From positions 22,638-86,637 of the IMG/VR virus record IMGVR_UViG_3300028888_000071: a DNA stretch of 64,000 nt. The stretch is one strand, 5' to 3'. Each line of letters begins with the position of its first letter. Within the stretch, counting starts at the first letter, position 1. Shown here piece after piece: positions 61,209-61,535 of the stretch. Made by a program: the position numbers and the translations under genes. Origin of the DNA: a virus (taxonomy: Duplodnaviria > Heunggongvirae > Uroviricota > Caudoviricetes). The notes beneath the pieces were generated by a model. It saw only the letters and a list, made by a program, of their open reading frames with translations, was not told the origin of the DNA and searched no databases.

Positions 61209-61234
61209 CGGAATTATCCCTTTTAGTCTTGTAA
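61209..61234. repeat. 26-bp perfect inverted repeat, left arm (CGGAATTATCCCTTTTAGTCTTGTAA)
   Basis: The exact reverse complement occurs at 61510-61535. The arms bracket 275 bp directly upstream of the capsid gene start. Confidence 0.85.
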
Positions 61235-61237
61235 TAT

Positions 61238-61453
61238 TTATAAGACTTCAAGTTCAATAGTCGCTTCACTGTTATCCAAGCAGGCATCAATTAAGTTGAG
61301 TATTCCACTTGGTTTGCTTATAACTCCACGACTGTACTCGACATTTCTTGCCGAGGTTTTAAAGTCTTCTACTGACCTATGCCATCTAACTTTCTTGGTT
61401 TTGCTTATACAAATTAGTTTGTTTTTTAATTTAGTATAAAACCACAATACCAA
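61238..61453 (-). CDS. small ORF (71 aa) inside the inverted-repeat-bounded segment; coding status doubtful
   Basis: ORF-track entry only. No motif. Confidence 0.2.
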   Translation of the reverse strand: MVLWFYTKLKNKLICISKTKKVRWHRSVEDFKTSARNVEYSRGVISKPSGILNLIDACLDNSEATIELEVL

Positions 61454-61509
61454 TACTTCAAAGAACTATAAAACTCAATATATTTATAAAAGTCATTTTC
61501 AAGATTTTT

Positions 61510-61535
61510 TTACAAGACTAAAAGGGATAATTCCG
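61510..61535. repeat. 26-bp perfect inverted repeat, right arm
   Basis: TTACAAGACTAAAAGGGATAATTCCG is the reverse complement of 61209-61234. Confidence 0.85.

Follow-up and report, generated by a model that had tools for sequence, protein, structure and literature searches.

Insertion sequences of the IS1595 family usually generate 8-bp target duplications and encode a transposase with an N-terminal zinc finger and a DDE domain (PMC8101967). Elements of the IS200/IS605 type have neither terminal inverted repeats (TIRs) nor target duplications, and TnpB is rare in the DDE/TIR transposons of prokaryotes (e.g., the IS630 type), while in eukaryotes such transposons commonly carry Fanzor1 (PMC13565253). 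We analyzed a 64-kb stretch of DNA from a virus of the class Caudoviricetes (positions 22,638 to 86,637 of the IMG/VR record IMGVR_UViG_3300028888_000071; hereafter the window), in which two perfect 26-bp inverted repeats bracket a short segment directly upstream of the major capsid gene. It is highly probable that the segment and its repeats together are a 327-bp miniature inverted-repeat transposable element (MITE) of the IS1595 family and that the repeats are its TIRs. The element is a selfish insertion that goes back to a TnpB-carrying element common to huge gut phages and their Bacteroidales hosts.

The inverted repeat and its element family

The arm CGGAATTATCCCTTTTAGTCTTGTAA and its exact reverse complement pair at 26 of 26 positions across a spacing of 275 nt, as described in the original prediction, and the view that such a repeat lies beyond chance held up, since none of 100 dinucleotide-shuffled sequences contained an arm match. 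No further copy of the arm was detected in the window with up to three mismatches, and a looser scan of the window (up to seven errors) returned no other credible match. One weak arm-like pair, at 2125-2284, falls in methylase coding sequence and was discarded as a chance match. The region had no blastn match among 50,697 GenBank phages.

Searching for the repeat elsewhere, as had been proposed, placed a 22-mer core of the arm at 14 loci in eight IMG/VR huge-phage contigs (10-413 kb, often with several loci per contig) and at 48 loci in about 30 Bacteroidales metagenome-assembled genomes (MAGs) from rumen and hindgut (cattle, buffalo, yak, sheep, deer, and horse). Several of these MAG loci hold ordinary bacterial genes, namely UvrA, HflX, DnaX, and a ComM-type Mg chelatase, so the family resides in host chromosomes as well as in phages. 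Similarity among the copies ends exactly at the outer CGG in every case, and the elements between paired arms span 117 to 3388 bp. Ten arm pairs have an identical AT-rich 8-mer in direct orientation on either side, far above chance (AGTGATTT, TATTAAAT, TATTTTTT, TTTTTAAA, ATTTTAAA, TTTTTATT, TTAATAAA, AAATAAAA, TTTTTTTA, and TTCTTTTT). Across the family, the flanks hold no fixed motif such as the target-adjacent motif of IS200/IS605-type elements.

A transposase of 310-314 aa is encoded by three of the copies (L008+L009, L049, and L061; L-numbers label loci in related huge-phage contigs, MAGs, and Logan contigs). The first is contiguous, measures 3388 bp, and has imperfect TIRs of about 62 bp and the duplication ATTTTAAA. 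Its protein matched Pfam DDE_Tnp_IS1595 (4.6e-33) together with Zn_ribbon_IS1595, as well as NCBIfam transpos_IS1595 (NF033547) at 181.6 bits with a cut-off of 75. The family scan was run on this protein, and the proteins of L049 (2687 bp) and L061 (2396 bp, duplication TTTTTTTA) were placed by their close sequence homology to it. Both arms of L061, a copy adjoined by an AbiH abortive-infection gene, are identical to the window arms at 26 of 26 positions. Because the arms are shared with copies that carry an IS1595 transposase, the family is of the IS1595 type and the arms are its TIRs. Most copies of the family have no transposase. Using tblastn, we found neither a transposase gene nor a TnpB gene in the 64-kb window; without its own transposase the window copy is non-autonomous, as a MITE is by definition, and its family membership stands. 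A MITE-like insertion had been one of three options offered for the repeat, and it proved to be the right one, as the arms are the TIRs of an IS1595 family with 8-bp duplications and with autonomous and non-autonomous copies.

Copies 87-88% identical to the window element over its full length are present at two other loci in other phage contigs, and these make it part of a true MITE subfamily with at least three insertions. One sister copy (L078 = L079 = L086) is 329 bp long, and the duplication abutting its arms agrees at 7 of 8 positions (AATAGAAT/AATAGAGT); in the other (L081), the left arm has decayed. The half of the window element next to its left end (LE, in element orientation; 61356-61509) has similarity to the sister MITEs only. 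Among seven metagenome matches to an interior 20-mer, five were set aside as chance. The smallest copy of the family (L005:9263-9379) is 117 bp long and consists of both TIRs, about 30 nt of the left-end promoter region, and about 25 nt of right-end sequence. Our literature search found no paper describing this family or such MITEs in huge phages.

The sole open reading frame (ORF) within the segment, ORF71, has a TTG start and no ATG, matches no family, and has no record as a called gene. The doubt expressed about it earlier was justified: its reading frame is interrupted by a TGA in the homologous copy L078, and we therefore do not regard it as a gene.

Some copies carry passenger genes, among them a phosphoribosyltransferase-domain protein and several proteins without a family match. 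The former was detected between TIRs in a phage (L006:3409-4441, equal to L003+L014; 298 aa, Pfam Pribosyltran 2.3e-09), and a shorter 213-aa version of it was detected in a Bacteroidales MAG contig (L062:1276-2066). To judge by these sequences, the shared passenger may be taken as evidence for an exchange of cassettes between phage and host. A common N-terminal motif (e.g., MTHIKRINEM, MVHIRRLNEM, MAHIKKLEEF, MESIKKFNEF, MNHILNFGEFIAEG, and MKIKRLNEFY) was seen in passenger proteins of the TIR cassettes, in the 237-aa protein encoded next to the window element, and in the gene 3' of the L081 MITE (loci L004:3129-3488, L001:9348-10262, L009:618-1484(-), L061, L044, L054, L032, L039, and L081:~1014). 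The motif is similar to the sequence that targets internal proteins to the T4 capsid (MKTYQEFIAE), and the TIR cassettes may shuttle proteins that are packaged in the capsid and ejected.

The TnpB-derived RNA module and phage promoters

Copies of 1.29-1.32 kb encode a TnpB of 401-415 aa that matched NCBIfam guided_TnpB (314 bits) and Pfam OrfB_IS605, Cas12f1-like_TNB, and HTH_OrfB. Inspection showed the RuvC-type residues GLD, VED, and HDRD, and the TnpB of these parent copies appears to be catalytically intact. The motif TATAAATA lies about 20 nt 5' of the tnpB ATG, and the stop codon falls within the right TIR. The last 150 nt or so of the window element match the tnpB 3' ends together with the right end (RE) at 71-77% identity (E 1e-17 to 1e-29), a tblastn search with TnpB matched the window at 61250-61354, and the C-terminal half of ORF71 (…SARNVEYSRGV…SEATIELEVL) is the TnpB tail. 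While the parent copies have the full tnpB gene, the window retains only the tail after RuvC-III; its copy is a deletion derivative of the TnpB-carrying form from which the tnpB coding region has gone. A 16-mer resembling the TnpB tail in L048, with no arm alongside, was rejected as a chance match. TnpB and the transposase were not met together in any one copy, and TnpB sits in non-autonomous cassettes. TnpB may be cargo of IS1595, or it may have entered an older MITE as an IS1341-type insertion, the nested version being speculative.

In established TnpB biology, the omegaRNA overlaps the 3' end of tnpB. We detected a structured RNA module at this place, where the scaffold of a TnpB omegaRNA would be expected, and annotate it as a putative omegaRNA scaffold. 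A covariance model made from seven other copies, with the window and the TIR excluded, matched the window once (98.5 bits, E 5e-27); the match covers model positions 1-118 in full, and every pair in it is canonical. The fold comprises one 7-bp hairpin and a long four-helix stem terminating in ...AUUGAAC, and the single-sequence minimum free energy structure of the window module is the same. The family alignment has 28-31 pairs, with 98% of cells pairing and compensatory changes at 10 of 28 pairs, compared with 27-54% pairing and at most two compensatory pairs in slid controls. Hairpin 1 differs between the window and L078 by two double compensatory differences, and in the overlapping frame a stop was acquired and the changes are mostly non-synonymous. 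Since the hairpin has been kept by compensation and the frame is broken, it is the RNA that is conserved and not the protein. Rfam gave no hit at E<=1 for window positions 60000-63000 and, for three parent loci, two weak unrelated matches (E 0.15 and 0.18), both outside the RNA module.

The spacer from ...ATTGAAC to the TIR varies by indels (1, 8, or 17 nt), and the gene of the nearest TIR-less TnpB, from Parabacteroides phage PF672P2, ends in ...TAGTTCAC; the scaffold may therefore stop before the TIR. Speculatively, a scaffold of this extent would agree with an older IS1595 MITE into which an IS1341-type unit had inserted. The module in the window may be a relic, or it may still be produced as a TnpB-type guide RNA.

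The motif TATAAATA was identified at 21 sites in the window, about 15-fold more than the 1.4 expected, and mostly 16-24 nt 5' of the ATG of substantial ORFs (for example at 8924, 13097, 18398, 27091, 45850, 56878, and 62284). It is evidently a late-type promoter motif of the phage and does not differ from the late consensus of T4. A motif of this type belongs to the capsid gene itself and lies 14 nt beyond RE and 92 nt 5' of the capsid ATG. The comparison with relatives lacking the insert, which had also been proposed, identified four phages (80% capsid identity) that are without the element, hold other genes 5' of the capsid gene, and keep the capsid promoter; homology to them resumes exactly at this promoter, just beyond RE. 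As the motif lies outside RE and marks the conserved start of homology, the insertion leaves the capsid promoter intact.

The window element, its tnpB remnant, and the capsid gene all point along the minus strand. The TATAAATA at RE arose by a 9-nt insertion relative to the TnpB-bearing copies and is also found in L004/L027, L005, L010/L015, and L081. At the other end, LE lies exactly 4 nt 3' of a flanking TATAAATA in the window, in L078, and in L005, a spacing that could reflect a target preference or selection for read-in transcription. The distance from RE to the start of the next gene is 27 nt in L078, 24 nt in L081, and 0 nt at a solo right end in L015, which suggests that only promoter-supplying orientations survive. 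A scan of 61000-61700 for sigma-70 promoters and terminators stayed at background level. The solo right end (L015:7458-7516, equal to L010:4607-4665) is made up of a tnpB-tail fragment, TATAAATA, and a TIR with no left partner; it adjoins the ATG of a 77-aa ORF and looks like an exapted promoter with a 5' leader.

These promoters and the RNA module raise the possibility, which we regard as unlikely, that the MITE is kept as a guide-RNA cassette, that is, as a late-promoter omegaRNA without a nuclease, domesticated or active. The TnpB that takes up the RNA would come from a sibling element, a co-infecting phage, or the host, and the complex would cut or silence a target such as alleles without the insertion. 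In favor of this, the deletion that formed the MITE spared the entire RNA module and the TATAAATA upstream of it, the two double compensatory changes with respect to L078 occurred despite the broken frame, covariation across the family is strong, and the flanking TATAAATA motifs at LE in the window, L078, and L005 all read inward. However, the window contains no TnpB gene, no TnpB of the same clade was found in the 413-kb contig with the sister MITE (searched by short exact peptide patterns), and the compensatory differences could have come by recombination with TnpB copies bearing the same hairpin variants. The 117-bp MITE in L005 is entirely without the module, so that the module is not required for persistence. 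We consider it rather improbable that the MITE is a nuclease-less guide-RNA gene transcribed from a late promoter and serving a TnpB encoded elsewhere; within such a scheme, the guide would be either the RE flank (here the capsid promoter region) or the junction of spacer and TIR. If true, the family would use RNA guidance for homing or exclusion in megaphages, with a DDE transposon as its vehicle.

Insertion site and other explanations

As an IS1595 MITE, the element would have been inserted by the IS1595 transposase of a sibling element, located in the phage or the host and acting in trans, and its target would have been the spacer that separates the 237-aa gene from the capsid gene and is AT-rich and dense in promoters. 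It would persist because the capsid promoter 14 nt downstream is spared and because its own two promoter motifs fire toward the capsid gene, and it would not invert.

Several observations weigh against this account. The window copy is without a clean 8-bp duplication, its flanks reading, in element orientation, AATAAAAA and AAAAAATT with only an A-run in common. The available 64 kb contain one copy only and no transposase. The search for an empty site was unsuccessful: the four phages nearest to this one carry different genes 5' of the capsid gene, nothing related to the 237-aa protein turned up in the metagenome collection, and an exact-protein look-up for the locus returned only short contigs of the same phage that break inside the element. 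It is from the family that transposition of the window copy itself would follow. In addition, the 12-nt TATAAATAAAAA flanks both sides, and the element may instead have arrived by promoter-promoter recombination.

The latter would mean that homologous recombination between late-promoter sequences, and not transposition, brought in the MITE together with 14 nt of foreign flank, in a shuffling of modules like that described for the promoter/stem-loop (PeSL) cassettes of T4-type phages. We give little credence to this course of events. The 12-nt TATAAATAAAAA stands directly 5' of LE and again 14 nt 3' of RE, the expected duplication is missing at the window copy, and relatives differ strongly from one another in what lies upstream of the capsid gene. 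Nevertheless, TATAAATAA(A) is the common promoter form of this phage, so the flanking 12-nt repeat may have arisen by chance; the imperfect duplication could also be accounted for by the loss of 2 nt from the A/T run, and in the sister copy L078 the 7/8 duplication directly adjoins the arms. Insertions seem to be frequent in the region upstream of the capsid gene, which has the look of a hot spot. In relatives, large proteins with many 'KYGVE' repeats and N-terminal zinc-finger-like motifs are encoded directly 5' of the capsid gene, beside a TnpB element (L017:1043-3025, L016:1833-3812, and L012:1361-3256; 630-660 aa), and these may be homing-endonuclease-like selfish genes.

The original prediction had also proposed an invertible promoter cassette, a phase-variation switch flipped by a site-specific recombinase and controlling the capsid gene or its neighbors. 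The repeats have the typical length and enclose about 275 bp with promoter-like motifs, and the phage is one of Bacteroidales, a group rich in phase-variation switches; even so, we find the proposal very hard to sustain. The repeats are the ends of a transposon whose family shows target duplications and, in other copies, the matching DDE transposase, and no recombinase is needed to account for them. Identical arms enclose unrelated cargo of 117 bp to 3.4 kb, and the TATAAATA of the capsid gene lies outside the repeats and is conserved where the element is missing. The window and the independent Logan assembly SRR9006805 agree in orientation, contigs L019 (942 bp) and L020 (3511 bp) being identical to the window at both junctions, so that one orientation is seen in two assemblies. 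That assembly breaks within the MITE, between about 61263 and 61415, which is consistent with an interior that is repeated or polymorphic in the sample. No recombinase family was detected in the five neighboring ORFs scanned within 3 kb (the capsid gene, the 237-aa gene, a methylase, a 123-aa ORF, and a kinase/HD protein).

The third earlier option, a long RNA stem in read-through late mRNA serving as an RNase III site or insulator, survives as a structure, because the minus-strand RNA does close the 26-bp stem when folded (-94.8 kcal/mol, z = -6.4), and is scarcely credible as the defining feature, because such a fold is expected from any pair of TIRs, the same arms surround unrelated cargo and occur in bacterial chromosomes, the scan of 61000-61700 gave no terminator-like signal, and the capsid gene has its own promoter further downstream.

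The features of the locus are collected in Table 1. The element lies between a Gp23-type capsid gene and the 237-aa gene, as had been described. Among database phages, the capsid protein is nearest to those of a 462-kb uncultured phage (44.5%) and of Prevotella Lak megaphages (33%). Elsewhere in the window, long imperfect inverted duplications (23650-27100; arms of up to 192 nt, 71-89% complementary) link two repeat-rich coding regions and look like two divergent paralogous genes of tandem repeats. Positions 2080-2320 and 57909-59216(-) apparently belong to two paralogous C5 cytosine methyltransferase genes with the common motif FENAP…YYKT…H.NC..R.RTFV.

Table 1. Features at and around the inverted repeat (window coordinates)
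Feature	Position	Strand	Basis or remark
Whole non-autonomous element (probable MITE), 327 bp	61209..61535	-	Perfect TIRs; homologous copies at other loci
Left-end TIR (LE, element orientation)	61510..61535	-	26/26 identical to L061 arms; 25/26 to L008/L009
Right-end TIR (RE, element orientation)	61209..61234	-	Contains the tnpB stop codon in full-length copies
Structured RNA module, putative omegaRNA scaffold	61252..61365	-	Covariance model hit
'ORF71', 71 aa, not a gene	61238..61453	-	C-terminal half is leftover TnpB tail
Internal TATAAATA promoter-like motif near LE	61481..61488	-	Equivalent motif 5' of tnpB in full-length copies
TATAAATA abutting the RE TIR, outward to the capsid gene	61235..61242	-	Alignments
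Flanking TATAAATA 4 nt 5' of LE	61540..61547	-	Directly after the stop of the 237-aa gene
Late-type motif TGATATAAATA of the capsid gene	61187..61194	-	Outside the element; conserved in L015-L017, where the element is absent
Major capsid protein gene (context)	59322..61094	-	Pfam Gp23 PF07068 5.6e-31; PHROG major head protein
237-aa gene, no assigned function (context)	61550..62263	-	Own TATAAATA 20 nt 5' of ATG

Significance and comparison with known systems

For the annotation of this phage, our results remove a phase-variable capsid switch as a false lead. They document an IS1595-type family that moves between Bacteroidales of the rumen and hindgut and their huge phages, and the link between phage and Bacteroidales through this family supports the host assignment. 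Its transposase-less derivatives are cassettes for genes driven by phage promoters, TnpB included, and a MITE that has lost TnpB and keeps a scaffold whose structure is apparently constrained offers a tractable opportunity to study nuclease-free guide RNAs. The insertion site is typical, as the region upstream of the capsid gene is variable, AT-rich, and promoter-dense, and relatives hold large endonuclease-like genes there.

In the invertible promoters of Bacteroidales, a few hundred bp with promoter motifs likewise lie between inverted repeats of 20-30 bp, whereas this locus belongs to a family with target duplications, variable cargo, and a DDE transposase, has been seen in one orientation, and leaves the capsid gene with a promoter beyond the repeats. 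In the variable regions of T4-type phages, the small genes shuffled by PeSL cassettes have short repeats with promoters on either side; those repeats are direct and act via homologous recombination, whereas the repeats of the MITE are inverted transposon ends. The MPME1/2 elements of mycobacteriophages are also a few hundred bp long, have inverted-repeat ends, lie between phage genes, and are polymorphic among related phages, but they differ from the MITE in encoding a small protein of their own and in having short repeats. No relation of the MPME elements to IS1595 or TnpB is known.

With the TnpB/omegaRNA systems of IS200/IS605 elements (and of IS1341-type elements and PATEs), the family shares the RuvC residues of TnpB in the parent copies and a covarying RNA at the tnpB 3' end. 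It differs from them in that its unit is bounded by DDE-type TIRs and 8-bp duplications, that tnpB is gone from the window copy, and that the RNA module matches no Rfam family. As in the DDE/TIR transposons with TnpB or Fanzor, an RNA-guided nuclease gene is carried on a cut-and-paste TIR transposon, though IS1595 is absent from the reported partners (PMC13565253). The IS1595 insertion sequences and their derivatives have in common with this family the TIRs, the 8-bp AT-rich duplications, and the zinc ribbon and DDE_Tnp_IS1595 domains of the autonomous copies (PMC8101967), together with passenger genes in some members and short forms without a transposase. What sets the present family apart from them is that it is common to huge phages and Bacteroidales and that many of its derivatives carry cargo under phage promoters, including TnpB. 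The element is of a known kind, an IS1595 MITE, with the twist of a TnpB-derived RNA module combined with phage promoters.

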